IMG/VR virus record: IMGVR_UViG_2595698649_000001
Span: 64,001 to 128,000 of that record
DNA: 64,000 nt
Reading direction: 5' to 3' (one strand)
Origin: a virus
Taxonomy: Duplodnaviria; Caudoviricetes
The stretch's first letter is position 1, and every line of letters starts with the position of its first letter. Shown here piece by piece: positions 8,211 to 52,426 of the stretch. A program made the position numbers and the translations under genes. The notes below the pieces were generated by a model that saw only the letters and a list, made by a program, of their open reading frames with translations, did no database searches and had not been told where the DNA came from.

Positions 8211-8867
8211 ATGAAACTAATTACAGAGGAACTTACTGACGTTCAGTTGATTGCAGAAGCAGACGAAAACGGCAAAAAGTCACACAAAATCAAGGGGATA
8301 TTCATGCAGGCGAATATTAAGAACCGTAATGGTCGTGTTTATCCACAAGAAGTTTTAGAAAACGAAGTAAACAGATATAGAAAAGAATTTATCAATAAAA
8401 AGAGAGCATTTGGTGAGTTAGGACATCCTGACGGACCAACTGTAAACTTAGAGAGAGTATCACACATAATTACATCATTAGAAGGCGACGGCAAAGGCAA
8501 CTATGTTGGCGAAGCAAAAGTGACTGATACACCTTATGGTAAGATTGTGAAGTCTTTGATAGACGAAGGCGCACAACTAGGAGTTTCGTCAAGGGGCATG
8601 GGTTCCTTGGAGAATAAAGGCGGTACTAACTATGTAAAATCAGACTTTTACTTAGCGACTGCTGCTGACATTGTTGCAGATCCATCTGCTCCAAGTGCAT
8701 TTGTACAAGGTGTTATGGAAGGCAAAGAGTGGGTATGGGACAATGGTATCGTTAAAGAAAAAGATATTTCTGAAATACAACAAGAAATTGAAGCTGCTCG
8801 AAGACATGAGTTAGCTGAAAAACAAACCGCTGCTTTTGAAAAATTTATGCGAAAAGTCGCAAAATAA
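8211..8867 (+). CDS. gp21: Prohead maturation protease
   Basis: NRNGRVYP, GELGHP and GVSSRGMGSL catalytic motifs. Confidence 0.96.
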   Translation: MKLITEELTDVQLIAEADENGKKSHKIKGIFMQANIKNRNGRVYPQEVLENEVNRYRKEFINKKRAFGELGHPDGPTVNLERVSHIITSLEGDGKGNYVGEAKVTDTPYGKIVKSLIDEGAQLGVSSRGMGSLENKGGTNYVKSDFYLATAADIVADPSAPSAFVQGVMEGKEWVWDNGIVKEKDISEIQQEIEAARRHELAEKQTAAFEKFMRKVAK

Positions 8868-36911: not shown

Positions 36912-37902
36912 AGAAACAGGTAATGAATATGCTTCACTAGTAAGTGAAGGTGTTGAAGCAGGTGATGTAGATAGTTTCATAGATACAGGTTCGTATATGT
37001 TTAATGCCTTACTATCAGGTAGTATCAATGGTGGTTTACCAAGTAATAAAATTACGGCGATTGCAGGTGAAAGTGCAACAGGTAAAACTTTCTTTGTACT
37101 AGGTATGGTAAAAGAATTTTTACAGAATAATAAAAATGCAGGTGTAATTTACTTTGAGAGTGAAAGTGCATTAACAAAAAAATTAATTGAAGATAGAGGT
37201 ATTGATAGTGAAAGAATGATTATCATGCCTGTAACTACAGTACAAGAGTTTAGACATCAAGCGTTAACAGTATTAGAAAAATACAACGAACAAGATGAAG
37301 CAGATAGACAACCATTGTTGTTAGTCTTAGATAGTCTTGGTATGTTGTCAACAACAAAAGAAGTAGAAGACACAGCAGAGGGTAAAGAAACTAGAGATAT
37401 GACTAGAGCACAAATACTCAAAGCTGCGTTTAGAGTATTAACATTAAAACTAGGTAGAACAAAAGTACCTATGATTATTACTAATCATACATATGACGTA
37501 GTTGGTGCATATATGCCAATGAAAGAAATGGGTGGCGGTTCAGGTTTGAAATACGCTGCTAGTACAATTGTATATCTATCTAAGAAAAAAGAAAAAGAAG
37601 GTACAGACGTAGTTGGTAATATCATACATTGCAAAACTCAAAAGTCCAGATTGTCAAAAGAAAACATGATGGTTGATGTAAGATTAAGATACGATACTGG
37701 TTTAGATAAACACTATGGTTTGGTTGACTTAGCAGTTAAACATGGCATATTCAAACAAGTATCTACAAGAATAGAACTACCAGACGGTACTAAACAATAT
37801 GCGAAAAGCATATATGCTGATCCAGAAAAATATTTTACTAAAGATGTAATGAAACAATTAGACGAAGCTGCAGACAAAGAATACAGTTATGGAAACTCCT
37901 AA
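36883..37902 (+). CDS. uvsX: RecA-like recombinase UvsX
   Basis: [19 protein letters not shown] and MGGGSG motifs. Confidence 0.95.
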
Positions 37903-38185
37903 TTATACATACATGGAAAATCCTAAAAGTGACCTTACAGGTTTTAGGATTACTGATGGTGTGTATAAAGATGTTGTTTATACTTATGGCAAGGTTCAAC
38001 CTATTGAAGAAAACGATAAGTTGAGATTAAAGTTTGAGTATAACATTGTAGAGAATCCAAGTGGCGTAGATACGGAAGATAAAAATTTCATTAATGTCAT
38101 TGGTGACATATTAACAATAGAGGTAGAAAAAGATGGTAACAGCAGAGAGAATAGAACGGACAGCGCTCAAAAATTTAATACATAA
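37889..38185 (+). CDS. Hypothetical protein (gp40-like position)
   Basis: Between uvsX and gp41, as T4 gp40 is; synteny only. Confidence 0.45.
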
Positions 38186-39536
38186 CGAAGTATATACAAG
38201 AAAGGTATTACCTTTTCTTAAACCAGAATACTTTGATGACCGTAATGAACGTATTGTTTTTTCTCAAATATTAAAGTTTGTTGAACAATACAACAAACAA
38301 CCTACAAAAGAAACTCTACAAATAGATATTGGTAAACGTAAAGACTTAAACGAAAAAGAACACCAATCTATTGTAGATTTAATCTCTACACTTAATAAAG
38401 AAGACATTGACATTGATTGGTTAACAAATACTACAGAAAAGTTTTGTAAAGACCGTGCTATTCATAACGCAGTTATGGAAGGTATTCATATCTTAGATGG
38501 CAAGAATAAAAATCAAACTCCAGAAGCAATACCTGAAATAATGAAAGACGCCCTTGCTGTGTCTTTTGATAAGAATGTTGGACATGATTATTTGTCTGAT
38601 ATAGAAAAAAGATTTGATTATTACCATAAGAAAGAAAACAGAGTACCTTTTGATTTAGATTTCTTTAACAAAGTTACCAAAGGTGGTTTGCCAAATAAAA
38701 CACTTAATGTTGCTCTTGCAGGTACGGGTGTTGGTAAAACTTTATTCATGTGTCATCAAGCTGCCGCTGCCTTATCTGATAATAAGAATGTATTGTATAT
38801 CACAATGGAAATGGCAGAGGAAAGAATTGCTGAAAGAATAGACGCTAACTTATTGAATGTGTCTATGGAAGATTTACATATGTTAAACAAAAAAATGTTT
38901 AACGACAAGATTGTACAACTACAAGGCAAAACAACAGGTACAGTTATCATCAAAGAATATCCAACTGCTAGTGCAGGTGCTAATCATTATCGTGCATTAG
39001 TAAATGAATTAGCATTAAAGAAAAGTTTTAAGCCAGATATTATATTCATAGACTATATTAATATTTGTGCTTCAAGTAGATTTAAGGCAGGCAGTAATGT
39101 AAACAGTTATACTTACATTAAAGCAATCGCTGAAGAATTAAGAGGATTGGCAGTAGAATTAAATGTGCCAATTGTAACGGCAACACAAACCACAAGAACT
39201 GGTTTTGTATCCACAGATGTAGGTTTAGAAGATACCTCTGAAAGTTTTGGTTTACCAGCAACAGCAGACTTTATGTTTGCTTTAATTAGTAGTGAAGAAT
39301 TAGAAAAGGCAGGACAAATGCTTGTCAAACAATTAAAAAACAGATACAATGACCCAACAATGAACAGAAAGTTTATTATAGGTGTTGATAGAAGTAGAAT
39401 GAAATTGTTTGATATAGAACAGTCAGCACAAAATCTAATACAACCAGAGCAACAGGAGAAATATGTCCAACACAACCCTACGAAGGAAGAAACACCAGAA
39501 CAAAAATATAAAAAGTTCCAAGACTTCCAATACTAG
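38133..39536 (+). CDS. gp41: Replicative DNA helicase
   Basis: AGTGVGKT, YITMEMAEE, IDY, ESFGLPATAD and QLKNRY motifs. Confidence 0.96.
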   Translation: MVTAERIERTALKNLIHNEVYTRKVLPFLKPEYFDDRNERIVFSQILKFVEQYNKQPTKETLQIDIGKRKDLNEKEHQSIVDLISTLNKEDIDIDWLTNTTEKFCKDRAIHNAVMEGIHILDGKNKNQTPEAIPEIMKDALAVSFDKNVGHDYLSDIEKRFDYYHKKENRVPFDLDFFNKVTKGGLPNKTLNVALAGTGVGKTLFMCHQAAAALSDNKNVLYITMEMAEERIAERIDANLLNVSMEDLHMLNKKMFNDKIVQLQGKTTGTVIIKEYPTASAGANHYRALVNELALKKSFKPDIIFIDYINICASSRFKAGSNVNSYTYIKAIAEELRGLAVELNVPIVTATQTTRTGFVSTDVGLEDTSESFGLPATADFMFALISSEELEKAGQMLVKQLKNRYNDPTMNRKFIIGVDRSRMKLFDIEQSAQNLIQPEQQEKYVQHNPTKEETPEQKYKKFQDFQY

Positions 39537-39732
39537 TTATCACTTAGAAGTTAAATCTAAGAAGAAAGGTAACAAGATAGTATTTGAAGTATGGCAGACT
39601 GATAGAAACGGTCAAACAGGCAGAATACAGACCTTTGCCTTTCGTAAAGACGCCAAACATCTAGCAGACTTTCACAATGAAAATCAACCTTGGAAAGTAA
39701 ATGGTGGTCTTCCTAAGTTTTTCTACGACTAA
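39463..39732 (+). CDS. Small basic hypothetical protein
   Basis: AGGAG SD; C-terminal W..NGGLP.F motif. Confidence 0.55.
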   Translation: MSNTTLRRKKHQNKNIKSSKTSNTSYHLEVKSKKKGNKIVFEVWQTDRNGQTGRIQTFAFRKDAKHLADFHNENQPWKVNGGLPKFFYD

Positions 39733-39766
39733 ATAGTAACATAACTATTATGGAGGCATTGATAAA

Positions 39767-40825
39767 ATGTTAAGTTTTACTGGATATTCAAACTTATCTG
39801 AAGCACGAAGTCGTGGTGAAGAAATGGAAGAACTGATTATTGCAGCTGTCAACGGTCAGAAAGAACCCAAATCTAAGTTTGGTATAATCCCAGGCGCAGG
39901 TAAAAATGTTGCCAAATTTCTCAAAGCAAAAGGTATTAGAGGTAAAGGACAAGTCCTTGGTGCAGATACTATTAATGTAACACCAGAGTGGACTAGTTAT
40001 TGGCCGGGTGGGTCAGTACCAGGTTCTACTAAAACACCTAAAACAGACTTCACAATAGGAAATAATAAAATCTCCCTTAAATCAGGTAGTGCTGCTCAGT
40101 TAATGAGTGGTGGTCGTAATGAGAGTATTGCAACTTTCTATACAGCATTAAAGAGTGTAGAAGGTATGCAGAAAAAAGTTGTTAACAAATTAACAGATAT
40201 GTTTGAAGGATTGGCACCTGCTTCAGTTGCAGGTAGTGAATTGGGAAAAGAAATTAAAAAAGGTAAAGATAAGGCAGTTATGAAAGCAAACGCTGCTCAT
40301 AAAGAATTAATGGGCGAACTAAGAGTTATCTTTGCAAAGAACAAAGTCTTTTCAAATGCTTTTGCTTATGAAGCAATGTCTGGTGATACCAAGTTTGGTA
40401 AAAAATCTCCAGGTAGTTGTACTCATTTTCTTACAGTATCATTTGATGGTAAGAAAGCACATTTAAAAAAAGTAAGTGATAAAGCATATGTACAGAAAAT
40501 TGCTGACCAAATGAAAGTGTCAGTACGTTTTAAATCATCATCACAAAAAGTTGGTGGTAAAAAGACAGGCAAATACAAGTATTGGTCTGCCGTAGGGTTA
40601 ATAGTTGACAAACTGGAAGAAGAAATGAGACCTATTGAGGGACAATTATTACACGAAGGTGTATTAGATAAACTCAAAGATATCTATGGAAAAGTAAAAG
40701 ACTTTATAGTTAACTTATTCAAAAAGATAATGGAATATATTTCAAAAGGTTTTAGTAATCTAATTGATTTTTTAGATTTAGAACCACAAGTAGATGTTGA
40801 CCCAACGGTAAGAACAGATGTATAA
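39767..40825 (+). CDS. Putative PD-(D/E)xK nuclease-like late protein with capsid-targeting-like N-terminus
   Basis: MLSFTGYSNLSE; E..E helix, TPKTD...ISLK catalytic-like pattern; CTAAATA late promoter at 39729. Confidence 0.5.
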   Translation: MLSFTGYSNLSEARSRGEEMEELIIAAVNGQKEPKSKFGIIPGAGKNVAKFLKAKGIRGKGQVLGADTINVTPEWTSYWPGGSVPGSTKTPKTDFTIGNNKISLKSGSAAQLMSGGRNESIATFYTALKSVEGMQKKVVNKLTDMFEGLAPASVAGSELGKEIKKGKDKAVMKANAAHKELMGELRVIFAKNKVFSNAFAYEAMSGDTKFGKKSPGSCTHFLTVSFDGKKAHLKKVSDKAYVQKIADQMKVSVRFKSSSQKVGGKKTGKYKYWSAVGLIVDKLEEEMRPIEGQLLHEGVLDKLKDIYGKVKDFIVNLFKKIMEYISKGFSNLIDFLDLEPQVDVDPTVRTDV

Positions 40826-42050
40826 CGATTTATTAGTAGAAGATAAAAACACACACCTAGAACATTTAGAAGATGATATCATCAATAATGGTTATGCAGG
40901 TGGAGAAAATGCAGTAAACTTTCTTAAAGCAACAGCAGACTTATTATCAGGTAATTCAACTAAGAGTGTAAACGTAACTGTCAAATGGGACGGTGCGCCA
41001 GCAATAGTTTGTGGACCTAGTCCTGAAAATGGCAAATTCTTTGTAGGTACAAAATCAGTATTCAACAAAACACCTAAAATAAATTATACAGTACAAGATA
41101 TTAAAAACAATCACACAGGTGAAGTTGCAAATATTTTACAAGATTGTTTAAGATACCTTTCTACACTAGGTCTCAAAGAGATATTACAAGGTGACTTATT
41201 GTATAGACAAGGTACAGTAAAGAAAACAACTTACAAATCATCAAGTGGTAAATCTGAACAGATGTTATCCTTTCAACCTAATACTATTGTTTATATGGTA
41301 CCAGAAGCGTCTGGTTTAGGTCGTAAAATTAATTCAAGTAAATTAGGTATTATATTTCATACAACTTACAAAGGTAAAACTTTTGATAAGTTAAGTGCCA
41401 AGTTTGGTGCTAATGTATCTAAACTAAGAAGAAGTCCAAGTGTCTTCTTTGATGACGCAAGTTATAAAGATGTATCTGGTGTTGCTACAATGACTATTGG
41501 CGAAATGCAATCTTTTCAAAAGATATTAAACATGGCAGGTGGGTCATTAAAAAAATCAAAAGAATTATTAAACAAAATTAAAACTGAAACAAATACATTA
41601 TCAGTAGGTGTACAATTAAAAACATATCTAAACAGTTTCATTCGTGCTGCCACAGATTTACCAAGTACAAAAGAAACAGCAAGTAAGTTTAGAAAGTTTT
41701 TCTTAGATAGAACACAAAAAGAAATTGATAGTAAAAAAACTGATAAGGGTAAAGAGAAATATATTATAGTGCAAAAAGAAGGACTTAAATTTATTGATAG
41801 TCAAAACGAAAAGATATATTTTGCATGTGCTACATATAAGACTTTACAGACAGCAAAATCAGTTTTGATAGATAAATTAAACAAAGCAAAATCAATAGGA
41901 ACATATAAGACAACACCAAAAGGATTACAAGTAACTAATCCAGAAGGTTATGTTGCTGTTGACAAATCAGGTAAAGCAGTTAAGTTAGTTGATAGATTAG
42001 AGTTTAGTGTACAAAACTTTACTGCTGCTAAAAATTGGGATAAAAAATAA
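40818..42050 (+). CDS. RNA ligase (Rnl1)-like nucleotidyltransferase (DUF6267-like)
   Basis: Motif I TVKWDG, Ia FVGTKS, III ILQGDL, IV-V EGYVAVDKSGKAVKL (T4 Rnl1 as recalled: EGYVAVMKDGSHFKI). Confidence 0.6.
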   Translation: MYNDLLVEDKNTHLEHLEDDIINNGYAGGENAVNFLKATADLLSGNSTKSVNVTVKWDGAPAIVCGPSPENGKFFVGTKSVFNKTPKINYTVQDIKNNHTGEVANILQDCLRYLSTLGLKEILQGDLLYRQGTVKKTTYKSSSGKSEQMLSFQPNTIVYMVPEASGLGRKINSSKLGIIFHTTYKGKTFDKLSAKFGANVSKLRRSPSVFFDDASYKDVSGVATMTIGEMQSFQKILNMAGGSLKKSKELLNKIKTETNTLSVGVQLKTYLNSFIRAATDLPSTKETASKFRKFFLDRTQKEIDSKKTDKGKEKYIIVQKEGLKFIDSQNEKIYFACATYKTLQTAKSVLIDKLNKAKSIGTYKTTPKGLQVTNPEGYVAVDKSGKAVKLVDRLEFSVQNFTAAKNWDKK

Positions 42051-42562
42051 TGGCTAAAAAAGGACTCTGGTATTACATGAACAAGAGGCGAAAAGAGGGT
42101 AAACCTAAACGTAAACCAGGCGAAAAAGGTTATCCAGGACCAGGTGCATTTGATAGAGCAAAAAGTGAAGACGCTAAAGACAATCTATTAGGCACACCTG
42201 AGTTAACAAACAAATATAAAAAAGATACACCAGGACAAGAAAATATAAATGTGCCTATTAAAGTAGGTGATACTGTTAAAGGTGGTAAGTTTAAAAACAA
42301 ATCTATCAAAGTTAAAAAGATAGGTAAGAATGATAAAAACGATATAACAATTAATGACAAACCGTTATTAAGAGTAAGACCACAAGTAGAAGGTTTCAAA
42401 GAATTTATAATGAAATACTTAGAACAGGCACCTAATACAGCAGACGCAATGAAAAGACACAAAGCAGGTAAAGCAGGTTTTACAGACAAAGCACATTTGA
42501 AAGCAAAAGGTTTAATACCTCGTTCAGATGGAGAAAAAAGAAAGAGTGATAAGTACAAATAA
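42050..42562 (+). CDS. Basic modular protein (short modules, SH3/KOW-like middle)
   Basis: Lys-rich; IKVGDTV..GKFKNK module; internal GFKEFIMKYLE resembles a capsid-targeting sequence. Confidence 0.55.
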   Translation: MAKKGLWYYMNKRRKEGKPKRKPGEKGYPGPGAFDRAKSEDAKDNLLGTPELTNKYKKDTPGQENINVPIKVGDTVKGGKFKNKSIKVKKIGKNDKNDITINDKPLLRVRPQVEGFKEFIMKYLEQAPNTADAMKRHKAGKAGFTDKAHLKAKGLIPRSDGEKRKSDKYK

Positions 42563-43224
42563 TGATACCATTTATTTTAAAAGAAGGTTTATATGACCCA
42601 GGTATATTCAAAGCATTTTTCCTTGCAGGTGGTCCTGGTTCAGGTAAAACATATGTTACAAATAAAGTAATGGGTGGTATGGGACTAAAGAATATTAATA
42701 GTGATAGAGCATTTGAAATAGGTTTAAAAAGGGCAGGTCTATCTTTAAAAATGCCTGAAGATGAGGCAAAGAAAAGAGACCCAATTAGATTGCGTGCCAA
42801 AGAATTGACAGGCAAAGCATTAGAGAATTACATACAAGGTCGTTTAGGTCTTGTTGTAGATAGTACAGGTAGAGATTATGAGAGTATAGCAAGACCAGTT
42901 TCATTATTAAAACAAATGGGATATGATTGCTATATGGTATTTGTGAATACGAGTTTAGAAGTTGCAATGGTAAGGAATACAGAAAGAGAAAGAACTGTAC
43001 CACCTGAAATTGTAAAGAATAACTGGAATACTGTACAACAAAATATAGGTAAGTTTCAAAGACTATTTGGTCAACAGAAAATGATTATCATTGATAATAA
43101 TAAGGCAGACGAAAAAATTATTACCAATGTATATAAACAAGTTGCCAAGTTTGTGAAAAAACCTGTAGATAATCACATTGCAAAACAATGGATTAGAAAA
43201 GAAACAGATAAGAGAAAAAGATGA
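42562..43224 (+). CDS. P-loop kinase (zeta toxin/PNK-kinase-like)
   Basis: LAGGPGSGKT, INSD, VVDSTG and RNTERER lid; N-terminus MIPFILKE|G. Confidence 0.8.
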   Translation: MIPFILKEGLYDPGIFKAFFLAGGPGSGKTYVTNKVMGGMGLKNINSDRAFEIGLKRAGLSLKMPEDEAKKRDPIRLRAKELTGKALENYIQGRLGLVVDSTGRDYESIARPVSLLKQMGYDCYMVFVNTSLEVAMVRNTERERTVPPEIVKNNWNTVQQNIGKFQRLFGQQKMIIIDNNKADEKIITNVYKQVAKFVKKPVDNHIAKQWIRKETDKRKR

Positions 43225-45011
43225 AGACATTAAAGGAATTACTAAGAAAGAAAGTTGGAAGAAAACAACCAGTTGTATTTGCATTTGGTCGTTTAAATCC
43301 ACCTACTGTAGGTCATCAAAAACTGATTGACAAAGTAATTACTATGGCAAAACGAGTGAAAGGTTTGCCTGTTTTATATGTTAGTGCTTCACAGGATAAA
43401 AACAAAAATCCTTTAACAGTAAAACAAAAACTAGATTATTTAAAGAAGATATACCCTCGTGGTATAAAATTAATGCCTGCTACAAGCAACGAAAGAACAT
43501 TTATGGAAATATTAAAGAATAACTTTGATAAAAGATATACAGATGTTTATATGGTTGCAGGTAGTGATAGAGTATTAGAGTTTAAAAAACTAATTAAAAA
43601 ATACAACGGTAAAGATTACAATTTTGATACCGTTAATGTAGTGAGTGCAGGTGAAAGAGATCCAGACGCTGAAGGCGTTTCAGGTATGTCTGCTAGTAAA
43701 ATGAGAGCGCTCGCAAAAGTAAACAATTATAAAGATTTTAGGAGTGGTCTTATGAAGAACACAAAGGAGAAAGACGCAATGAAAGTATTTAAAGATTTGA
43801 AAAATCAAATGGGTGTAAGAGAAGATATGTTACCACCTAGTACAAGTAGTGAGAGTGACGAGTTAAATATTATTAGAGAAAATTATCATGCAGGAGAAAT
43901 ATTTAATATTAATGAAACAGTTGAAAATTTAAAAGATGGTAGTATAGGTAAGATTATTAAAAGAGGACCTAACTACGTTCAATACGAAATGGAAGACGGT
44001 GGTGTTAAACGTGCATGGTTAGATGATATCGTTCCAACTGAGGATACGGTAAATGAAGAATTGATTAATGAAAATGTTGACCAGAAGAAATTAGTATTAC
44101 AAAAGAATAGTGATAAACTAGTTTCATTTAAAAGTTTTGATGAAGAAATCAACGCAGCTTCTAATCAACAAGATGTAAATGTTGATGACGAAGATAAAGC
44201 GAGAGAAGATAATGAGAAGAAAGATAAACAAAAGAATAAAGTAAAAACACCTGGACAACCAGATACATTTGATAGTTATACTGATACTCATATTAGTAAT
44301 GACCAGAAAAGTAACACTAGAAAGTTTAGTCAAGTTACACCAGGACAAGAAAGAGATTATGAAAAACTTGTGGCAAACAGAATGTTCACTAAGTTTGAAG
44401 GTGTTGATAGAGTTGCACAGGATCCAGATATTAAAAAGAAAGATGGTACACAACCTAAGAAATACTATTCTGGTTTAAAGAAGTCAACTAAATCTGCTAG
44501 AGACGCACACTTTAAAAAAGGTGCAAAAATGGATGACGATAATCCATCAGCATATAAACCGGCACCTGGTGATAGTAAAGGTAAAACTAAACCTAGCACA
44601 CATACACAAAAATTTAAAAAGATGTTTGGTGAAGTTGATGAAGAAGCATTATCTGCTAATGATATTAGAGATTGGTCATTATTACCAGAAACTATTGATA
44701 TGTTTAAAGACAAATATCAAACTGACTGGAAAATTGAACTAGACAATACAATTGCTGAAATGATGAAAGACATTGAGATAGATGAAACTGCTACAGCAGC
44801 GATTAAGAATAAAGCAGATAAATCTGGTATGCCGGCAGGTGTATTAAGAAAAGTATATAATCGTGGAGTTGCTGCCTGGAGAACAGGACATAGACCAGGA
44901 ACTACACCACAACAATGGGGTCTTGCAAGAGTTAATTCATTTGTTACTAAATCAAGTGGCACATGGGGTAAAGCAGACGCTGACTTGGCGAAACAAGTTA
45001 GAGGAAGTTAA
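43221..45011 (+). CDS. Cytidylyltransferase-like (HIGH) domain fused to SH3-like and small C-terminal modules
   Basis: FGRLNPPTVGH, VAGSDR and MSASKMR motifs; C-terminal YNRGVAAW..QQWGLARVNSF module (DUF5824-like). Confidence 0.8.
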   Translation: MKTLKELLRKKVGRKQPVVFAFGRLNPPTVGHQKLIDKVITMAKRVKGLPVLYVSASQDKNKNPLTVKQKLDYLKKIYPRGIKLMPATSNERTFMEILKNNFDKRYTDVYMVAGSDRVLEFKKLIKKYNGKDYNFDTVNVVSAGERDPDAEGVSGMSASKMRALAKVNNYKDFRSGLMKNTKEKDAMKVFKDLKNQMGVREDMLPPSTSSESDELNIIRENYHAGEIFNINETVENLKDGSIGKIIKRGPNYVQYEMEDGGVKRAWLDDIVPTEDTVNEELINENVDQKKLVLQKNSDKLVSFKSFDEEINAASNQQDVNVDDEDKAREDNEKKDKQKNKVKTPGQPDTFDSYTDTHISNDQKSNTRKFSQVTPGQERDYEKLVANRMFTKFEGVDRVAQDPDIKKKDGTQPKKYYSGLKKSTKSARDAHFKKGAKMDDDNPSAYKPAPGDSKGKTKPSTHTQKFKKMFGEVDEEALSANDIRDWSLLPETIDMFKDKYQTDWKIELDNTIAEMMKDIEIDETATAAIKNKADKSGMPAGVLRKVYNRGVAAWRTGHRPGTTPQQWGLARVNSFVTKSSGTWGKADADLAKQVRGS

Positions 45012-45412
45012 TGACTTTTGAATTTAAACACCCTAGTAAATATAAGACAGTAAAGGAAGTAAAGGAAGAAACAATGGTAAAATCATTTAAAGAAGTAGAG
45101 GAGATTGACGCTATCTGTGAGCAACAATACCAAGATTTGCCTTTAGAAGAAGCAGAATTTCAAGGTAAGAAAGTTACACTTAACGACCCAATTCGTGGTG
45201 GTTCAAAGAAATTTTATGTATATGTTAAAGACGGTGACAAAGTAAAAAAAGTTTCTTTTGGTGATACGACAGGTTTAAGTATTAAACGTGACGATCCTGC
45301 TAGGCGTAAATCTTTTAGAGCAAGACATAACTGTGACCAGAAGAAAGATAAGACAACGGCAGGTTACTGGTCATGTTATCAATGGCGTGCAGGCGCTAAG
45401 GTTAATAATTAG
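45011..45412 (+). CDS. Conserved small phage protein (RRKSFRARHNC family)
   Basis: KKFYVYV..VKKVSFGD..DPARRKSFRARHNC..YWSC. Confidence 0.65.
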   Translation: MTFEFKHPSKYKTVKEVKEETMVKSFKEVEEIDAICEQQYQDLPLEEAEFQGKKVTLNDPIRGGSKKFYVYVKDGDKVKKVSFGDTTGLSIKRDDPARRKSFRARHNCDQKKDKTTAGYWSCYQWRAGAKVNN

Positions 45413-45420
45413 TATAAATA
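45413..45420 (+). promoter_or_regulatory. Late promoter TATAAATA
   Basis: Exact consensus 9 nt before ATG 45429. Confidence 0.75.
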
Positions 45421-45428
45421 GTAAAGTT

Positions 45429-46547
45429 ATGACAAGATACACAAAAACAATGGCGGAAGCCTACAGAGAAGTCAACGAGGATCCAATTGCGAAAGCACAG
45501 GATAAACTAGACGCAACAAAGAAAATTGCTGCCTTAAAAAAACAAATTGACCAAATAAAACAAGACCAAAAAGCAGACGCTGCTAGAGACGCAGCTGCAC
45601 CTAAACCGGCAGCAGAAGCAGTTGATAGTGACGATACTGGTGGTGAAGCAGAAACAGATATGATAATGAACCAAGTGAAACAAATGCGACACTTCTTAGA
45701 CGGTATTGAAAAAATGGTAGGTGCAGACGGCGATGTTGAAGAATGGGTACAAAACAAAATTACTAAAGCAACTGATTATCTGAAAACTGCTTACTCATAC
45801 AAAACAGGTGAGACAAACGAAGAAATCGCACCTGCTATAGCAGGTCTTGCTAGAGCGGCAGCATCAGGCGCTGGACAAGGCGCTGGCGCAGCTGTGGCAA
45901 ACAGAGCAATGGATAAGATGAACGCAAGTAAGAAAATGGATCCTAAACAACATGTTGCTAAGAGTAAAAAGAATCCAGATATGTATTGTGTATTTGATAA
46001 AGATGGTAATGAAGTTAAATTATTCAAAGATAAAAAAGACGCTGAAGAATATGCAATTAAAAACCATGACAAGTTAATGGAAAACATGATATTAGAATTT
46101 ACAGATGCTCAAATAAAGAGACTGAAAAAAGAATACGAACCACTACGAGGTAAAGAAACTGGAATAAATCCAGAGAAGTTTAAAAAACTTCGTGTTATGT
46201 TAAGTAGAATGACTAAAGATATGTTGTTGAAATTAGTTAAGGCAGATTTGCCTATAATTACATCAGCTGCGAAAGCAAGATTAGTTGTTCATCATGGAAT
46301 GAAGTGGTCACAATTACCAGAAGAACTGGTAGCGTATATTGACTTAGAACAATTAGACGAAGCTAAATCTAAGTTTAAAAGTGTAGAACCAAAAGTAATT
46401 GATAGAGTAGAAAAAATGATGAGAGGTAGTAGAGACGAAAAGAACTCTATTGCTAATCTATTAAATTACTTAATGCCACCTGAAGTTGTTGATATGATTA
46501 GGTACAAACTAAAAATAACACAACCAAGAGGCAAAATTAAATTTTAA
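45429..46547 (+). CDS. Modular putative internal head polyprotein
   Basis: Start at 45429 after the late promoter; short modules separated by VNE, TNEE, LME, ILE and LDE. Confidence 0.6.
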   Translation: MTRYTKTMAEAYREVNEDPIAKAQDKLDATKKIAALKKQIDQIKQDQKADAARDAAAPKPAAEAVDSDDTGGEAETDMIMNQVKQMRHFLDGIEKMVGADGDVEEWVQNKITKATDYLKTAYSYKTGETNEEIAPAIAGLARAAASGAGQGAGAAVANRAMDKMNASKKMDPKQHVAKSKKNPDMYCVFDKDGNEVKLFKDKKDAEEYAIKNHDKLMENMILEFTDAQIKRLKKEYEPLRGKETGINPEKFKKLRVMLSRMTKDMLLKLVKADLPIITSAAKARLVVHHGMKWSQLPEELVAYIDLEQLDEAKSKFKSVEPKVIDRVEKMMRGSRDEKNSIANLLNYLMPPEVVDMIRYKLKITQPRGKIKF

Positions 46548-46559
46548 AGGGAGACTAAA

Positions 46560-47126
46560 ATGTCAAAAGATAAAAACGGAATTGTGGGTTGGAACTCTAG
46601 TTACTTTGGTGAAGCAAAACCAGGGTCATTAGCAAAAACAATCGCAGATATAACAAACAAACAAAACGACTTAGTTGGTGGTAAACCAGAAGTCGCAGAT
46701 AGTCAAGCAGCTATGGCTGCAAAAGCAAAAAAAGAATTAGCACAAGAGGGTAAATTACCACCTGCTCTTCAAAAAGCAATTGACGCCAAAAAAGAAAAAG
46801 AAGGCGACAAAGAGAAAAAAGAAGATGAAGACATGGCACAAAAAGAACCTAAGTCTAAAGACAAAGGTGCTATAAAAGTACATGGTGAAGATGTGAACAA
46901 AGAGATTGAAGCTGCTCAACAAGGTAAAATCAAATCACTAGTAGATACTATTATTGATATGTACAAAACTAATGAAGCGAGTATGGATAAAGTAAATCCA
47001 GTTGCAGTAAAGAAAAAGTTTGACGACAGAAAAGACAAAGACATTGATAACGATGGCGATGTTGATAGTTCAGACAAATTTCTTCACAAAAGAAGAAAAG
47101 CAATATCTAAAGCAGTAAGTAAGTAA
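46560..47126 (+). CDS. Modular charged protein with EF-hand-like DIDNDGDVD repeat
   Basis: Modules bounded by FGE, AQE and TNE; ends KDIDNDGDVDSSDKFLHKRRKAI. Confidence 0.6.
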   Translation: MSKDKNGIVGWNSSYFGEAKPGSLAKTIADITNKQNDLVGGKPEVADSQAAMAAKAKKELAQEGKLPPALQKAIDAKKEKEGDKEKKEDEDMAQKEPKSKDKGAIKVHGEDVNKEIEAAQQGKIKSLVDTIIDMYKTNEASMDKVNPVAVKKKFDDRKDKDIDNDGDVDSSDKFLHKRRKAISKAVSK

Positions 47127-47127
47127 T

Positions 47128-47718
47128 ATGAAATACTCCGCATTTAAAGCGGAGACTTTAAACCTACACCTAGTTCAGGAACAGGACAGTCTCCCAACTA
47201 TATACTGTGACATGGACGGTGTACTTTGTGATTTTGTGGCAGGCATTGATAAGATGTTTACGCTCAAGTCTAAAGATCCATCTATGCCTGGACCAATGCA
47301 AACCAATGGTTACTCAGATACAGACGATTGGTTAAAAGCGCCAATGAGTTCATTGAAATGGCAACCTATACATAACTACCCTATGTTTTGGCCGACACTA
47401 CCGTGGATGAAAGACGGTCTAAAGTTATGGTCATACATAAGCAAGTTTAAACCACATATTTTATCAGCATATACACCACACGATAAGAACAGTATTAAGG
47501 GTAAAAGACTGTGGATACAAAGGAATTTAAGACTTACTGACCAAAGTAGAATACACTTAGTCAGACGTAAAGAGAAGAAACTTTACGCTAATGGTAATGT
47601 ATTAATTGATGATTATGGTAGAAATGTGAAAGAATGGAAAACAAACAAAGGTATCCCAGTTAAGCATAAATCAACTGCTGAAACGATTTCTAAGTTGAGA
47701 AAACTAGGATATGTATAA
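47128..47718 (+). CDS. HAD-family 5'(3')-nucleotidase-like phosphatase
   Basis: IYCDMDGVLCDF, ILSA, K..W and VLIDD motifs; N-terminus MKYSAFK..LVQE. Confidence 0.85.
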   Translation: MKYSAFKAETLNLHLVQEQDSLPTIYCDMDGVLCDFVAGIDKMFTLKSKDPSMPGPMQTNGYSDTDDWLKAPMSSLKWQPIHNYPMFWPTLPWMKDGLKLWSYISKFKPHILSAYTPHDKNSIKGKRLWIQRNLRLTDQSRIHLVRRKEKKLYANGNVLIDDYGRNVKEWKTNKGIPVKHKSTAETISKLRKLGYV

Positions 47719-47721
47719 ATA
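47714..47721 (+). promoter_or_regulatory. Late promoter TATAAATA
   Basis: Exact consensus before the structural gene at 47768. Confidence 0.75.
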
Positions 47722-47767
47722 GTAACAGTTAACTAACAAAATTTAACTTATTAATAAGGAGAAAAAC

Positions 47768-48358
47768 ATGGGACTATGGGGAGCAACAGACGCTGATGAA
47801 AGCAAACCTAAGAACCTAACCACGGCAGAGAAAAAAGAAGTATTTGCCAATACAAAAGGTTGGGTAAGGGAAGCAGGATCAAGTGCGTCAGGAAACGACA
47901 ACACTAGTGCTGACGAGGAAGTTTTGGTCGCTATAGGCGGACTATCATCTTCTTTAGGCGCTGCTGACATAACAGAAATTGAATGGATTACAACAACAGC
48001 AGATAAGTCTGCTGGGTTTACACTTTCAGCAAGATTAAGATTTAATGAACCAGTAAACGTTGTTACTACGGGTGGAACACCTACTTTAGCAGTAACTAAC
48101 GGTAACCAAGGATCAGGTACAGGAAGAGGACCTCACAACTTGGCATATGCAAGTGGAACAGGTACTAACGAATTAGTATTCTCATTAGCAATTGGTGCGG
48201 CTAACGCTGCTACAAATGCAGATGACGTATTAGTTTTTGGTGCAAATCCATTAGCACTAAACTCAGGCACAATTAAAGATGTACAAGGTACTAACGCAAC
48301 TATAACAAGTGTTGCAAGTATTGGTACAGCGGCTGGAACTGTTACAGTTGTAGCATAA
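47768..48358 (+). CDS. Virion structural/decoration protein with Ig-like domain
   Basis: MGLWG N-terminus; FNEPVNV..GTPTL...YASGTGTNELVF Ig-like signature; Gly/Thr/Ala-rich. Confidence 0.65.
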   Translation: MGLWGATDADESKPKNLTTAEKKEVFANTKGWVREAGSSASGNDNTSADEEVLVAIGGLSSSLGAADITEIEWITTTADKSAGFTLSARLRFNEPVNVVTTGGTPTLAVTNGNQGSGTGRGPHNLAYASGTGTNELVFSLAIGAANAATNADDVLVFGANPLALNSGTIKDVQGTNATITSVASIGTAAGTVTVVA

Positions 48359-48367
48359 TAAATAAGA

Positions 48368-48453
48368 TTATTACGAGGGTACTCAGTACCCTCATAATGA
48401 TAGCAGTTAAGCATATGCGTACTGCTAGTAGCATTCCCCAAATACATAAGGGG
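48368..48453 (+). promoter_or_regulatory. Structured intergenic leader with three hairpins
   Basis: GAGGGTAC/GTACCCTC, TAGCAGT/ACTGCTA and CCCC/GGGG stems after ATAAATA. Confidence 0.45.
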
Positions 48454-48473
48454 TTTATATAAGGAGAAAAAAA

Positions 48474-49145
48474 ATGGCTGACAAAAAAATAACAGCACTT
48501 ACAGACCTGGGTTCAGGTAACATAGCAAGTGCTGACTTACTTCATGTAATTGATGATCCATCAGGAACACCAATTAACAAAAAAATCTCAGTAGCAAGTT
48601 TATTCGCAAACGTTCCAACTGCTGTAGCAATCAATCCAGGTGCAAGTGCTAATGTAACAATTAACGCTAACGCAACTGATAGTGACTTTATCGTTTCAAA
48701 TGATGACGAAGAAGCATTTAGAGTTGATGGTGCTAACAGAGAAGTTGTAATTAACGAAGCTTCAGGTCAAACAGATTTAAGAGCAGAGACAAACTCTTAC
48801 TCTGCTGCTTTACTTGTTGACGCTTCTGCTGACCAAGTACAAGTTAACGCAACTCCAGTTTTTGGATTAACACAAGCAATATCAGGCGCAGGTGCTATTG
48901 ATGTTGTATCTGCTATTACTGAAATAGTAACTACAGGTACTAACGCATACACATTTGCTGACGGTGTTGAGGGACAAATTAAGTTCCTAGTTATGAAAAC
49001 TGACGGTGGTGTAGGTACTGTAACTCCATCTAACTTTGCAAGTGGTTCTACAATCGCTTTCAATGATGTAGGTGATACAGCATTCTTACTATTCACTAAC
49101 GGTAACTGGCAACTAATTTCACACTTTGGTTGTACAATAGCGTAA
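48474..49145 (+). CDS. Virion fibre/structural protein
   Basis: [13 protein letters not shown]-terminus typical of fibre anchors; beta-rich. Confidence 0.65.
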
Positions 49146-49158
49146 TAATTAATTAGTG

Positions 49159-49181
49159 AGGGCGCTACGGCGCCCTTTCTT
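49159..49181 (+). terminator. Terminator with C(UACG)G tetraloop
   Basis: AGGGCGC-TACG-GCGCCCT-TTCTT. Confidence 0.8.
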
Positions 49182-49195
49182 AACATGAGGATAAT

Positions 49196-49390
49196 ATGAA
49201 AGAAAATATTGAAGCGAAATTAAAAGTTTTAGAAGACAATCGTTCAAAAGTATCTGAACAGATACAAAATGGTGAACAATTGTTAACGAAAGCAAAGGCA
49301 GACTTAAACGCAATTCAAGGTGCGATACAAGTTTGTCAACAATTATTAGAGGAAGTAAAAGGAGATAAGAATGACGGAACAAAAGATTAG
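49196..49390 (+). CDS. Small coiled-coil protein
   Basis: Heptad pattern; GAGG SD. Confidence 0.6.
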   Translation: MKENIEAKLKVLEDNRSKVSEQIQNGEQLLTKAKADLNAIQGAIQVCQQLLEEVKGDKNDGTKD

Positions 49391-49595
49391 ATATGGCGCT
49401 GGTGGCGTTCCTTACTACGAAAAGGCAGACGCAATTGAGACTGAGAAAAAAGAGTTAGAAACTTCTTATCAACAATCTATCGCTAATAAGGAAGAAAGAA
49501 CTTCCAAAAAGAAAAAGAAAACTAAAAAAGTAATTCAGGAAATCATGGGAGATGACCTGGTAGAAAACAAGGAGATGTTAGATGAAATCATTTAA
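49371..49595 (+). CDS. Small hypothetical protein
   Basis: AGGAG SD; coupled to neighbours. Confidence 0.55.
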   Translation: MTEQKIRYGAGGVPYYEKADAIETEKKELETSYQQSIANKEERTSKKKKKTKKVIQEIMGDDLVENKEMLDEII

Positions 49596-49995
49596 AGATT
49601 TTCAAAACGTAAACGAAAAAACTACTCCTGTTAACGCACCTTCAGAAAGTGATATGCACCTTAATGATATTACTAATGACGAAATCGTCGCTAGAATTAA
49701 TAACTTTGTAGGTTCAATTGCAAGCATGGAACATATTAATCCATCAGCTGCAGTAAATCATTTGAGAAGTAAACTACACGGTTTAGGTGTAGAAATGGTT
49801 GGTGAGTTACCAGAGTTTGTTGAAAAGAATGGTACAGTAAGTATTCCACTATCTAAATTTGGTGGCGTATATGGTAAAACAGGTGAAGAACCTGCTAGTG
49901 AAGTTAAAAATGATGACGGTATTGAAAGACAATTAAAAATCAAATACGAGACATTAGATAACGGAGCATGCAAGGTTTACGCTGAATTAGTATAA
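49582..49995 (+). CDS. Hypothetical protein with capsid-targeting-like N-terminus
   Basis: MKSFKDFQNVNE resembles T4 IPI MKTFKEF...ITE. Confidence 0.6.
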   Translation: MKSFKDFQNVNEKTTPVNAPSESDMHLNDITNDEIVARINNFVGSIASMEHINPSAAVNHLRSKLHGLGVEMVGELPEFVEKNGTVSIPLSKFGGVYGKTGEEPASEVKNDDGIERQLKIKYETLDNGACKVYAELV

Positions 49996-50004
49996 GCGTA
50001 GATA

Positions 50005-50370: not shown

Positions 50371-50976
50371 ATGGCAAGTACAGCAATAGACGCTTTTATT
50401 ACATTTCGTTTTTTGAAACTATTAGTTACACCATTTAATAAAACTGAGGCATTTAAACTTGGTATTATTGATGAGAGAGGTAAAGTTTTAAAAAAGTATA
50501 AGACACTTGAGCGAATAGAAGAAAGGCAAGCATATACTATTTTACACAGGTTGGTTTTCAATGTAAAGAAATTGATTGAAAAAGTTCCTGGTGGTAAGTC
50601 CAGATTGGCGAGTTATGCGGCCGCTCTATTTCTTATTAAAGAGCATGTTGCTGAAATGAATGATAGTGACGGTCAACTACTTGAAAAAGAGTTTTATAAA
50701 TATTTAAAAGACAATGACTTACTTGAAGAAGAAGACAACGAGATTAAGGAAGAAGTTGCATTTGGTGATAAACTTTTGAAAGGTACTTACAAGTTAGTAC
50801 AAAGTGTAGGTACAGATGAAGAAGACAAAATTATAGGTAAAAAAGGTGACAAAGTTTCTGTTTATGCAGACCAAGTTGCTAAAGATAATGTTATGGGACA
50901 AGATGTTTTTGAAGTGATACATGATGATAGTAAACAAGTATTATTAGTAACAATAGAAGACATAGAAGAAGCATGA
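50371..50976 (+). CDS. Conserved T4-like marine phage hypothetical protein
   Basis: IDAFITFRFLKLLVTPF..TEAFKLGIID..G; SYAAALFLIKE. Confidence 0.7.
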   Translation: MASTAIDAFITFRFLKLLVTPFNKTEAFKLGIIDERGKVLKKYKTLERIEERQAYTILHRLVFNVKKLIEKVPGGKSRLASYAAALFLIKEHVAEMNDSDGQLLEKEFYKYLKDNDLLEEEDNEIKEEVAFGDKLLKGTYKLVQSVGTDEEDKIIGKKGDKVSVYADQVAKDNVMGQDVFEVIHDDSKQVLLVTIEDIEEA

Positions 50977-51344
50977 GAACATACAGAGCATTCAAAAAAG
51001 ATCCAGATGTCGTAGAGGCAATGGACATGGCGGCTAGACGAAAGAAAGCAATCAGAATGAGAAGAATGGCAAAGCGTATGGTGATTGCAAGAAAACGATC
51101 CATGAAAAGAATGGCAACTCCAGATATTTTAAAGAAGCGTGCCACTAAACAAGCAAAGAATATGTTGATTAAAAAATTTACTAAAGGTATGGATAAAAGT
51201 GATATGACAATTACAAAAAGAGCAGAGATTGAAAAAAGATTAAAGAAGATGGCAAGTAGAATTAAAACTATCTCACTAAAACTAATACCTAAGATAAGAC
51301 AAAAAGAACAAGCAAGACGTAAACAAATGGGTGGTGGAAAATAA
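50973..51344 (+). CDS. Highly basic (Arg/Lys) protein, possible DNA-condensing internal protein
   Basis: MRTYRAFK..VVE| leader followed by an extremely basic helical body. Confidence 0.6.
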   Translation: MRTYRAFKKDPDVVEAMDMAARRKKAIRMRRMAKRMVIARKRSMKRMATPDILKKRATKQAKNMLIKKFTKGMDKSDMTITKRAEIEKRLKKMASRIKTISLKLIPKIRQKEQARRKQMGGGK

Positions 51345-51346
51345 TT

Positions 51347-52426
51347 ATGAAAACATTTACAGATTTTAGCACAGACTTACTTAGATTAAAAACGCAACTA
51401 GAAGGCAAACAACAAGAAGATATTGCTAATGTTGCAGGTGACGGTGCAGTTTCTATGCCACCTACTGCCAGAAAAGTTGTTAAAAAGAAAAAAACATTTA
51501 GTGTATCTCCACAAGTCTTTGATATGTTCAGACGAGGTAAGAAGAAGTTTGAAAAATGGTCTAAGTATCTAAACTTAGAAGATGAAAGTCAAAGAGCATT
51601 ATACAGTTGGGCAATCAAAAATCATCACGGTGTTATTATCTTACAAAATGCTGTAACAGGTGAAGTAAGAGCAATCAGACATAATAGAATGGGTGGTGGA
51701 CAATGGCACAAATTAAGTCGTGGTATTGTAGGTGAAGATAAAGATATGCCTAAAGCAGTATTAGATGACGCTGAAGAAATAGTAAAAGAATTAAAGAAGA
51801 AGAAAGCAGACTTTGCTAAGAGATATGGTAAAGACGCTAAAAAAGTTATGTATGCAACTGCTATGAAAATGGCAAAAGCAAAGAATGGTATTGAAAGTAA
51901 ACAATTTGGTAAAATGATACAACAGATTAAATCTAGTATTGAAAACTTAGGTCAACAAAACGAAGACTTTAATTCAAAGATAGAAAATCAATTGTATGAA
52001 ACACCAGCAATTGCTAACGAAAACAATATCAATATTCTAAAAGATATTGTCTTAAAGAATGAAAGACAAAAGATAAATTTTGACAAACATGGAAGTATGA
52101 GAGTATTTCCAGAAGAAGCAAATATATTACTAAAAGTATATAATGAACTAAGAGACGACCTAAAAGAAAAGTTTACAAAGATGTTAAACTTCAATCAAAT
52201 GGGTCTTAAAAGTTTAAAAAATATGTGTTATGAAATTGCTACTTATGGTGAACCACAAGGTCTAGCAAGACCTATTGCTGATATAGGCAATATGAAATCA
52301 CCACGAAGCAGACCGGCATATGCCTTAAATGCAAATAAGAAAAAGAAAAAAGAAACGGCAGTAGGTCCTGGTATGAACACATATAAACCACAAATGAATT
52401 TAATAGCAAAAAAGAAAAGGGACTAA
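51347..52426 (+). CDS. Modular putative internal head polyprotein
   Basis: MKTFTDF...QLE leader; modules bounded by QQE, VGE, IE, QNE and LYE; KRYGKDAKKVMYATAMKMAK module. Confidence 0.6.
   Translation: MKTFTDFSTDLLRLKTQLEGKQQEDIANVAGDGAVSMPPTARKVVKKKKTFSVSPQVFDMFRRGKKKFEKWSKYLNLEDESQRALYSWAIKNHHGVIILQNAVTGEVRAIRHNRMGGGQWHKLSRGIVGEDKDMPKAVLDDAEEIVKELKKKKADFAKRYGKDAKKVMYATAMKMAKAKNGIESKQFGKMIQQIKSSIENLGQQNEDFNSKIENQLYETPAIANENNINILKDIVLKNERQKINFDKHGSMRVFPEEANILLKVYNELRDDLKEKFTKMLNFNQMGLKSLKNMCYEIATYGEPQGLARPIADIGNMKSPRSRPAYALNANKKKKKETAVGPGMNTYKPQMNLIAKKKRD

Follow-up and report, generated by a model that had tools for sequence, protein, structure and literature searches.

Gene content of the block between helicase and primase

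The window analysed here, a stretch of 64,000 nucleotides (nt) from a virus (Duplodnaviria; Caudoviricetes), corresponds to positions 64001-128000 of IMG/VR record IMGVR_UViG_2595698649_000001, which consists of one contig of 147,284 bases. Every long open reading frame (ORF) of the window lies on the + strand, and its G+C content is ~32%. We focus on a block of genes from about position 39767 to 52426 (window positions are used throughout), which occupies the interval between the gp41 helicase and gp61 primase genes and probably represents a cassette of capsid cargo of the kind known from the T4 internal proteins and Alt. The phage is a T4-like marine myophage, because of the gene content of the window and of the named phages nearest to the block, which are Methylophilales phage Melnitz isolates (72.6% identity across 11% of the block) and, after them, T4-like cyanophages. 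The following genes of the block, labelled by letter and with lengths in amino acids (aa), are central to the analysis:

39767..40825, + strand: ORF A, 352 aa; candidate PD-(D/E)xK nuclease fold; its leader MLSFTGYSNLSE precedes the conserved core ARSRGEEMEE
40818..42050, + strand: ORF B, 410 aa; DUF6267 protein with the short leader MYNDLLVE
42050..42562, + strand: ORF C, 170 aa; very basic
42562..43224, + strand: ORF D, 220 aa; predicted P-loop kinase (PNK/PSTK/Zeta group); the leader MIPFILKE is followed by an invariant GxYDPG core
43221..45011, + strand: ORF E, 596 aa; predicted N-terminal HIGH-motif nucleotidyltransferase, acidic linker and C-terminal DUF5824; leader MKTLKELLRK
45074..45412, + strand: ORF F, phrog_7595; the ORF opens at 45011, and homologues start at the Met at 45074 (MVKSFKEVEE)
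45429..46547, + strand: ORF G, 372 aa; leader MTRYTKTMAE, conserved in homologues as M[ST]RY..TM[SA]E
46560..47126, + strand: ORF H, 188 aa; no leader; C-terminal DIDNDGDVDSSDKFLHKRRKAI motif common to other cassette proteins
47128..47718, + strand: ORF I, 196 aa; predicted NT5C-type HAD 5'(3')-deoxyribonucleotidase with a 20-residue N-terminal extension ending LVQE
47768..48358, + strand: ORF J, 196 aa; phrog_11617 (E=6e-61); no leader
49582..49995, + strand: ORF L, 137 aa; leader MKSFKDFQNVNE; six homologues from other loci carry a strict T4-like leader
50005-50370, + strand: ORF M, DUF7207 (E=3.7e-45)
50973..51344, + strand: ORF O, 123 aa; starts MRTYRAFKKDPDVVE
51347..52426, + strand: ORF P, 359 aa; starts MKTFTDFSTD, in which positions 4 and 7 are aromatic and position 10 is Asp

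An initial annotation of this stretch had described A, B, D, E and I as a late-promoter-driven set of enzymes that may enter the host from the capsid. The coordinates it had given for these five ORFs are borne out, as are the leaders it had read at their starts (MKTLKEL in the case of E) and the motifs, while control by late promoters is seen only in part.

ORFs A to F follow one another with no gaps in between: A overlaps B by 8 nt, the pairs B/C, C/D and E/F share TAATG, and D/E share ATGA, with B to F being translationally coupled to A. At the other end, the cassette seems to reach as far as about 52.4 kb, since L and O also bear leader-like starts; ORF P has in addition a QLE at residues 17-19 and gives weak PHROG matches only. 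The same gp41-to-gp61 interval in cyanophages S-PM2, S-SM1 and S-SZBM1 likewise carries a DUF6267 gene and a "cytidyltransferase" gene, and the gene content of the cassette differs among the relatives whose IMG/VR loci we compared. In a Pfam scan, A, C, G and H reached no family cut-off.

N-terminal leaders in relatives and in this phage

That T4 directs certain proteins into its head is textbook knowledge, the main examples being the small basic internal proteins and Alt. In the T4 record, internal proteins IPII and IPIII both start with MKTYQEFIAE. A review of T4 head assembly (PMC9026906) describes the first ten residues of this capsid targeting sequence as sufficient to load foreign proteins into the head, with targeting hinging mainly on residues 4 and 7, while residues 8 and 10 govern processing by the protease gp21; when position 10 is Asp, cleavage is prevented, but not targeting. 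Homologues of A, B, D, E and I, and of neighbouring genes, begin with M-K-[ST]-F-x-x-[FY]-[LI]-x-E. This marine leader matches the T4 sequence at its functional positions, having an aromatic residue at 4 and 7, Ile or Leu at 8 and Glu at 10, so that the earlier proposal of a T4-type head-targeting leader finds support at the level of the protein families. Clear leaders are also seen in gp15 (MQGFKTFLSE), gp18, gp20 and gp27 of phage Melnitz. Our literature searches found no paper tying the capsid targeting sequence to marine T4-like phages.

DUF6267, the family of ORF B, which also bears the cluster label T4-GC71, is very large, with 7,999 of 8,000 scored candidates matching it and 2,573 clusters at 50% identity. 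We aligned B with 65 DUF6267 representatives at 35-47% identity (alignment A1, 66 sequences in all), most of which start with M-[KIL]-[ST]-F-x-x-[FY]-L-x-E directly before a nearly invariant KNTHLEHLED (for example MKSFKQFLSE and MKTFKHFVTE). Ten of the 66 are leaderless, 19 fit a strict pattern defined as ^M..[FYW]..[FYW][LIVM].E, and 34 have a leader ending in [LIVMFY]xE (34/56 of those with a leader).

The strict pattern was then counted in 80 IMG/VR loci, which were fetched with their flanks using the DUF6267 alignment as query and in which ORFs were called. It occurred in 46 of the 962 forward ORFs that are 80 aa or longer, as compared to a mean of 0.17 and a maximum of 2 when residues 2-40 were shuffled 200 times; it was found in 0/201 reverse-strand ORFs and at 2 of 6,615 internal Met positions. 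Fifteen of the 46 matches are DUF6267 proteins, and the 31 others comprise D and E homologues, E-D fusions, one I homologue, L homologues and proteins unmatched in the window. Ten leader-bearing proteins, nine without a counterpart in the window and one E-type fusion, were scanned against Pfam: two are adenylate kinases (ADK, 1.8e-40 and 7e-34) that adjoin DUF6267 in their loci, one is a fusion of a Pol-beta-type with a HIGH-type nucleotidyltransferase, one carries DUF5824, and six gave no family or a marginal one. All these statistics are descriptive and do not amount to a blind test, because we had seen the sequences before we wrote the leader patterns and had selected the loci by the presence of DUF6267.

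The predicted cleavage site is also positioned consistently relative to the conserved cores. In the A family (alignment A4), [LIVMFY]xE ends the leader directly before a [GA]RSRGE core in 45/45 sequences, the leader having the form MKSFxxY-LxE with F4 and E12 at least 90% conserved. In the D family, [LI]xE stands directly before the GVYDPG core in 18/18, and E8 and G9 are invariant. A similar arrangement appears inside fusion proteins: among N-terminally extended DUF6267 fusions, [LIVMFY]xE lies at most 12 residues before the core in 20/21, as compared to 14.5% for any 12-residue window there, and all five nucleotidyltransferase-kinase fusions of alignment A5 have DLIxE and then GVYDPG at the junction. 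These latter fusions link E to D, and fusions of DUF6267 with CTP_transf_like, which occur in both orders (2/10 long proteins scanned), link B to E. Four long DUF6267 fusions (P0244, P0259, P0265 and P0268) start with M.KIALLPGGFKPPH, resembling another HIGH-type transferase, and carry FSKNWWKxQ[LI]xExx[LI]xE ahead of the DUF6267 core; such proteins may be polyproteins that are cut in the head.

Two further genes of the window bear on head maturation:

8211..8867, + strand: gp21-type prohead core protease (Pfam PF03420 Peptidase_S77, E=5.7e-33)
10222-11484, + strand: Gp23 major capsid protein

The gp21-type protease is the enzyme expected to trim the leaders of the cargo. In the major capsid protein itself, ~60 residues precede the Gp23 domain (window 10222-10400), with FLGE at residues 49-52, which would be consistent with maturation by an [L]-x-Glu cut of the kind that we propose for the cargo.

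Capsid loading is thus well supported for the protein families, by sequence comparison and by published virion proteomes of relatives, because the leader matches the T4 sequence, the strict pattern far exceeds its shuffled expectation, S-SM1 gp190 occurs in virions (see below), and a gp21-type protease is present. Since the relatives share the ten-residue address label of T4, the cassette enzymes probably travel inside the virion and reach the host together with the DNA.

The phage's own leaders are degenerate variants of the T4-type leader that deviate in spacing. The leader of ORF A has two extra residues as compared with the T4-type spacing, and the 20-residue leader extension of ORF I is missing from most of its homologues. 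A hydrophobic or aromatic residue at both positions 4 and 7 is found in A, L, O and P, and approximately in B, D, E, G and I. When the pattern was relaxed to an aromatic residue at positions 3-5 followed by [LIVM]xE within the first 20 residues, 6/18 ORFs of the block (39767-52426) matched, as compared to 9/153 elsewhere in the genome (Fisher p=0.0016). In AlphaFold2 (AF2) models, residues 1-11 of B and 1-12 of A are disordered, the latter with a predicted local distance difference test score (pLDDT) below 50. Taken by themselves these leaders would not convince, because a hydrophobic-x-Glu near the N-terminus is common, and the signal becomes strong only once homologues are compared. What the initial annotation had claimed for this very phage therefore stands in part: A, L, O and P keep positions 4 and 7, but the leaders are degenerate and E has Lys in place of the cleavage Glu. 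We consider packaging in this particular phage to be somewhat favoured by these data, and put it higher for the families in general.

Virion detection, promoters and genomic setting

Published proteomes of T4-like cyanophages link the family of ORF E to the virion by experiment. A putative cytidylyltransferase, T4-GC190, was detected in purified S-SM1 virions according to Sullivan et al. 2010 (PMC3037559); S-SM1_190 bears this cluster label and begins with MKKFSAFLNE. Peptides were found in S-SZBM1 virions for ORF140 (cytidylyltransferase), ORF139 and ORF136, in S-CREM2 virions for ORF154 (cytidylyltransferase) and the nearby ORFs 155, 156 and 160, and in S-SCSM1 virions for the NMNAT-like ORF91. 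S-SZBM1 ORF140 starts with MRFRQFIIE, and the leaderless DUF6267 protein of the same phage, S-SZBM1_141 (MAKNTHLEH), is absent from its list of 30 virion proteins.

The initial annotation had the block driven by late promoters, which the sequence bears out only in part: G and J are preceded by the canonical T4-type box, A has only an imperfect motif, and B to F have none. The motifs are:

39729..39736, + strand: imperfect late-promoter-like ACTAAATA, 39 nt upstream of the start of ORF A
45413..45420, + strand: TATAAATA, a late promoter box of the canonical T4 type that lies 16 nt upstream of G
47714..47721, + strand: TATAAATA, 54 nt upstream of J

The cyanomyovirus late promoter has been reported as NATAAATA (PMC2984593), which the ACTAAATA before A does not fit. 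The + strand of the window holds 18 copies of ATAAATA and the - strand none; all 7 occurrences of TATAAATA are likewise on the + strand, as compared to about 13 over both strands together predicted by shuffles. The box thereby resembles a functional late-promoter word that is avoided elsewhere.

The replication genes around the block are:

36883-37902, + strand: UvsX-like recombinase
38133-39536, + strand: DnaB/gp41-like helicase
54253-55245, + strand: gp61-type primase

Besides the post hoc character of the leader patterns, several observations weigh against packaging. The bare hydrophobic-x-Glu within the first 22 residues is not rare, being present in 34/76 ORFs of the window and 8/10 ORFs of the block, and the strict leader pattern fits 0 ORFs of the phage's 147,284-base genome. 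The leaders of B and D are shortened, H and J have none, and E has Lys instead of Glu at position 10, as do its closest relatives (in loci L006, L008 and L010). ORFs A to F lack a canonical late promoter. On the side of the virions, S-SZBM1_139 was detected yet has no clear leader; published detection is limited to E homologues; and the S-CREM2 and S-SCSM1 papers allow for carry-over of abundant proteins through CsCl purification.

These points might be accommodated if the genes were ordinary cytoplasmic phage genes, with the N-terminal pattern serving translation initiation or turnover and virion detection reflecting carry-over. The placement of the block among replication genes, from gp41 to gp61, would agree with this, as would the missing canonical late promoter of A to F, the many cyanophage DUF6267 proteins that are leaderless, and the contamination that the proteomics papers allow for. 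However, the pattern matches T4 targeting at four functional positions, with the Glu directly before the folded domain, and it is kept at internal fusion junctions, where translation initiation is irrelevant. In addition, four studies, each independent of the others and each of a T4-like cyanophage, detected the nucleotidyltransferase in virions, and virion proteins are encoded in the same block. We therefore regard the cytoplasmic explanation as quite improbable, and continue with packaging as the preferred one.

The enzyme set, its possible uses and its counterparts in known systems

ORF B matches Pfam DUF6267 (PF19782) with E=3.4e-135 and 451.7 bits, as compared to a cut-off of 27. The motifs previously noted in it are present, namely KWDG (residues 56-59), GTKS, ILQGD and EGYVAVDKSGKAVK (376-389), and the 66 diverse homologues of alignment A1 share as invariant residues K56, D58, G59, D126, Y159, H181, E376, G377, K389 and R393. 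The AF2 model (pLDDT 92.4) is beta-rich at 52-213 and 361-390, the two parts being split by a helical bundle at 227-355. B is probably a very divergent ligase-type lysine nucleotidyltransferase.

The initial annotation had gone further and called B an Rnl1-like ligase. We compared it by hhalign with T4 RnlA alone and with a 36-sequence Rnl1 alignment, using also N- and C-terminal pieces of B and a version of B lacking the helical insert. In these comparisons, its residues 372-391 align to T4 Rnl1 223-242 with 50% identity over 20 columns (EGYVAV in both), placing E376, G377 and K389 on E227, G228 and K240, which we take to be catalytic residues of Rnl1. The alignment is weak, covering 20-35 columns at a probability of 2.5-15%, with E-values of 0.013-0.034 when all of B is used and of 0.0017 when only its C-terminal piece is used, as compared to 0.038 for a T4 DNA ligase control. 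The N-terminal half of B gave no alignment to Rnl1, even with the helical insert removed.

Searches with other libraries gave a similar picture. Against Pfam, B matched neither RNA_lig_T4_1 (PF09511) nor the Rnl1 C-terminal domain (PF20819); one of the 66 relatives does match RNA_lig_T4_1 (E=6.2e-4), and a local Rnl1 hidden Markov model run against 270 DUF6267 family proteins found nothing below E=0.02. Searches of the PDB with phmmer and with the profile of B returned low-complexity matches only, and Foldseek of the B model against the PDB returned nothing below E=0.15. In the viral library BFVD, the members of the family itself rank first; of the 36 Foldseek rows that follow at ranks 15-50, 8 bear the name of an RNA or DNA ligase (E 0.056-1.2). 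Since only the motif IV-V match was found and the T4 DNA ligase control scored about the same, we leave B outside Rnl1; as that family is defined, B does not belong to it, and the Rnl1 call is not upheld. Weak matches to the Pfam SWI2_SNF2 ATPase family were also seen in 7/66 DUF6267 members (best E=2e-4).

ORF D carries GGPGSGKT and matches Pfam Zeta_toxin (3e-13) and AAA_33 (4e-11) and NCBIfam PSTK (2.5e-10), so that the earlier reading of it as a P-loop kinase is borne out by its sequence. Against the PDB its profile retrieved Zeta (1.4e-5), PSTK (4.5e-4) and the 171-residue chains 4gp6, 4gp7, 4mde and 4jst (6e-4 to 1e-3), of which 4gp6/4gp7, at 6e-4, are presumably the kinase domain of Clostridium thermocellum Pnkp. 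By hhalign it aligns to the T4 PseT kinase domain with a probability of 60% (E=8.6e-5, 137 columns); Zeta toxin and PSTK score equal or better. By these profile matches, we assign D to the PNK/PSTK/Zeta group of predicted kinases.

In ORF E, described before as a HIGH-family nucleotidyltransferase, we found the corresponding motif as TVGH, with T29, G31 and H32 invariant, and a match to phrog_3041 "cytidyltransferase" (3e-252); CTP_transf_like (PF01467) falls just under the cut-off (20.4 bits vs 21). Its nearest named matches are the NadR-type NMNAT (1.2e-3) and NaMN adenylyltransferase (2e-3) models of NCBIfam and, in the PDB, NadR (0.024) and PPAT. The matches to NMNAT-type models are far below the family cut-offs, and with these weak scores a definition of E as an NMNAT was not reached; E would be a HIGH-motif transferase whose nearest named relatives, by weak scores, are of the NMNAT and PPAT types.

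ORF I scores 30 bits against Pfam NT5C (PF06941; cut-off 24.8), has DMDGV at residues 28-32 and matches PDB 2jao with E=0.0076, and is accordingly classified as a predicted NT5C nucleotidase. The DxD HAD motif that had been reported for it is thus present; as a Pnk-type phosphatase, I was rejected on account of its NT5C match and a BLASTP E-value of 1.5 against T4 PseT.

For ORF A, the proposal of a PD-(D/E)xK-like protein receives modest support. The A family (alignment A4) has an invariant D94 followed by S103-L-K105 (S103-x-K105), and the top two Foldseek matches of the AF2 model of ORF A (pLDDT 78.2) are MspI (E=0.024, probability 0.84) and HinP1I (E=0.042, probability 0.57), with low template modelling (TM) scores of 0.22-0.28.

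What would such a set of enzymes be packaged for? One answer, given by the initial annotation, is an RNA heal-and-seal kit, in which D phosphorylates 5'-OH ends, I or another HAD protein removes 3' phosphates and B seals, pre-empting anticodon nucleases and other ribotoxins at injection. It draws on the invariant KxDG, D126, EG and K389 of B, on the 50% identity of its motif IV-V segment to Rnl1, on the one relative that matches RNA_lig_T4_1 and on the ligases among the BFVD rows, as well as on the alignment of D with the PseT kinase domain, the nearest named relatives of D, which act on tRNA or RNA ends (PSTK and the chains 4gp6/4gp7), and the adjoining of B and D in many loci. The ligase part is countered by the shortness of the hhalign match and by the DNA ligase control, whose E of 0.038 came with a meaningless alignment, by the N-terminal half that cannot be aligned to Rnl1, by the missing significant PDB fold match and by the SWI2_SNF2 matches in seven members. 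Beyond B, I is NT5C-like and not Pnk-phosphatase-like, the E family and the adenylate kinases of relatives point to nucleotide and not RNA chemistry, and an anticodon-nuclease context is not known for these hosts. We consider this kit in its specific form unlikely.

Alternatively, the packaged set may recondition NAD and nucleotide pools, through E, D, I and the adenylate kinases of relatives, with B as an NAD- or ATP-using transferase. Such a set could counter NAD- or nucleotide-depleting defences, or could start infection in starved, slow-growing hosts. The NMNAT, NadR and PPAT relatives of E agree with this, and the E-D fusions run nucleotidyltransferase-then-kinase, which we assume to be the domain order of NadR. 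The leader-bearing adenylate kinases next to DUF6267 and the deoxyribonucleotidase type of I point in the same direction, and cyanophage papers already propose an NAD role for the virion NMNAT-like protein. Nevertheless, every match of E to NMNAT lies far below the family cut-offs, D shows no match of the ribosylnicotinamide kinase type, and a few hundred enzyme molecules per virion may not suffice to shift pools. We consider this account rather unlikely as well. RNA end repair and the restoration of nucleotide and NAD pools fit the enzyme set about equally, and they are mutually compatible.

Returning to packaging itself, we propose the following mechanism. Each protein would be made with a short N-terminal address having hydrophobic or aromatic residues at positions 4 and 7, which would bring it into the prohead core. 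There, the gp21-type protease would cut after [L/I/V/M]-x-Glu, directly before the folded domain, and the mature proteins would remain in the head and exit with the DNA at infection. The cargo would consist of enzymes for nucleic-acid ends and nucleotides: the restriction-endonuclease-like A, the DUF6267 protein B, the kinase D, the NMNAT-like E and the NT5C-type I, along with adenylate kinases in relatives. We infer the packaging and cleavage in this phage, the injection and all biochemical activities of the cassette. In its broadest form, which we put forward tentatively as a possible rather than a probable account, marine T4-like phages keep a variable cassette of enzymes with a T4-type head address, fusions being cut by the prohead protease in the head, and inject ready-made enzymes for RNA end repair or pool refilling before any phage gene is expressed. 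In that account, the likely purpose would be to overcome abortive-infection defences or to let infection begin in starved cells.

The remaining ORFs of the block yielded several observations. ORF C gave no family match in scans of Pfam, PHROG and NCBIfam, and its middle segment (IKVGD.VKGGKFKNKSIKVKKIGKN) recurs as a C-terminal extension of a kinase homologue (locus L006, 3897-4724), forming a further fusion link of the cassette. The acidic motif at the C-terminus of ORF H, DxDxDGDxDxxDK(F/Y)LxxRRKAI, recurs elsewhere, as in S-SM1_191 close to its start and in a number of PHROGs, one of them labelled cytidyltransferase. The N-terminus of ORF J, MGLWGATDADESKPK, resembles that of S-SM1_195, MALWGITDADESKPKW, which is annotated as an S-layer domain protein. 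Directly after ORF K, a G+C-rich inverted repeat (GGGCGC...GCGCCC, then TTTCTT; window 49146-49195) resembles an intrinsic terminator that would close the J-K unit. ORF M is kept beside virion proteins in S-PM2 (p149, T4-GC198), S-SZBM1 (S-SZBM1_135) and Melnitz (gp28).

The T4 head address is seen here on entire families of enzymes, and the phages that encode them rank with the most abundant of the ocean. Packaging as proposed would explain the recurrent "cytidylyltransferase" of cyanophage virion proteomes, would give DUF6267 a cellular address and a testable chemistry, and would let the leader pattern predict which further proteins are injected. Phages would then pre-load metabolic or repair enzymes, and the leaders listed here would be natural ones for protein delivery by marine phages. 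Targeting itself is already known from T4; the cassette would be T4-style targeted head cargo that consists of enzymes.

Among known systems, the restriction enzymes MspI and HinP1I are the top Foldseek matches of the model of ORF A, which has an invariant D94 and then S103-x-K105. ORF A differs from them in the TM-scores of 0.22-0.28, an identity of 9-11%, an extra C-terminal beta-hairpin and long helix, and a block without a partner methyltransferase. B shares with T4 Rnl1 (RnlA) the KxDG and the EGYVAV...K stretch, but has neither an RNA_lig_T4_1 nor an Rnl1 C-terminal domain match and contains a 130-residue helical insert before motif IV. D aligns with the kinase domain of T4 Pnk (PseT), including the P-loop, an NxxD segment and an RN..R segment; unlike PseT, it has no fused phosphatase domain, and I is of the NT5C type. 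T4 Rnl1 and Pnk are early cytoplasmic proteins that are not known to carry a targeting leader.

The closest counterparts of ORF E are the NMNAT-like or cytidylyltransferase proteins of cyanomyovirus virions (S-SM1 T4-GC190, S-SZBM1_140, S-SCSM1 ORF91 and S-CREM2 ORF154). The N-terminal domain of E is homologous to them (tblastn, 33% identity to S-SZBM1_140 and 47% to an S-PM2 protein), and they occupy the same place after DUF6267 and gp41. ORF E differs in its added DUF5824 tail and in having lost Glu10, and the available text of those papers reports detection with no mention of a targeting leader.

Among T4 proteins, Alt is an ADP-ribosyltransferase that is carried in the head and injected, according to its record note, and its N-terminal propeptide, MELITELFDE, is hydrophobic at positions 4, 7 and 8 and has Glu at position 10. 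The start of ORF E, MKTLKELLRK, can be compared with it, although E has Lys at position 10 and belongs to a different enzyme family. Alt is also trimmed at its C-terminus, as stated in PMC9026906. The T4 internal proteins differ from the present cassette in being small and basic, whereas the families described here are predicted enzymes of up to about 600 residues, whose fusion proteins keep cleavage-like sites between domains and whose leader spacing deviates in this phage. They share with it the ten-residue leader with aromatic residues at 4 and 7, Ile or Leu at 8 and Glu at 10, as in MKSFKQFLSE and MKKFSAFLNE of the relatives, together with a gp21-type protease gene and a variable gene content.

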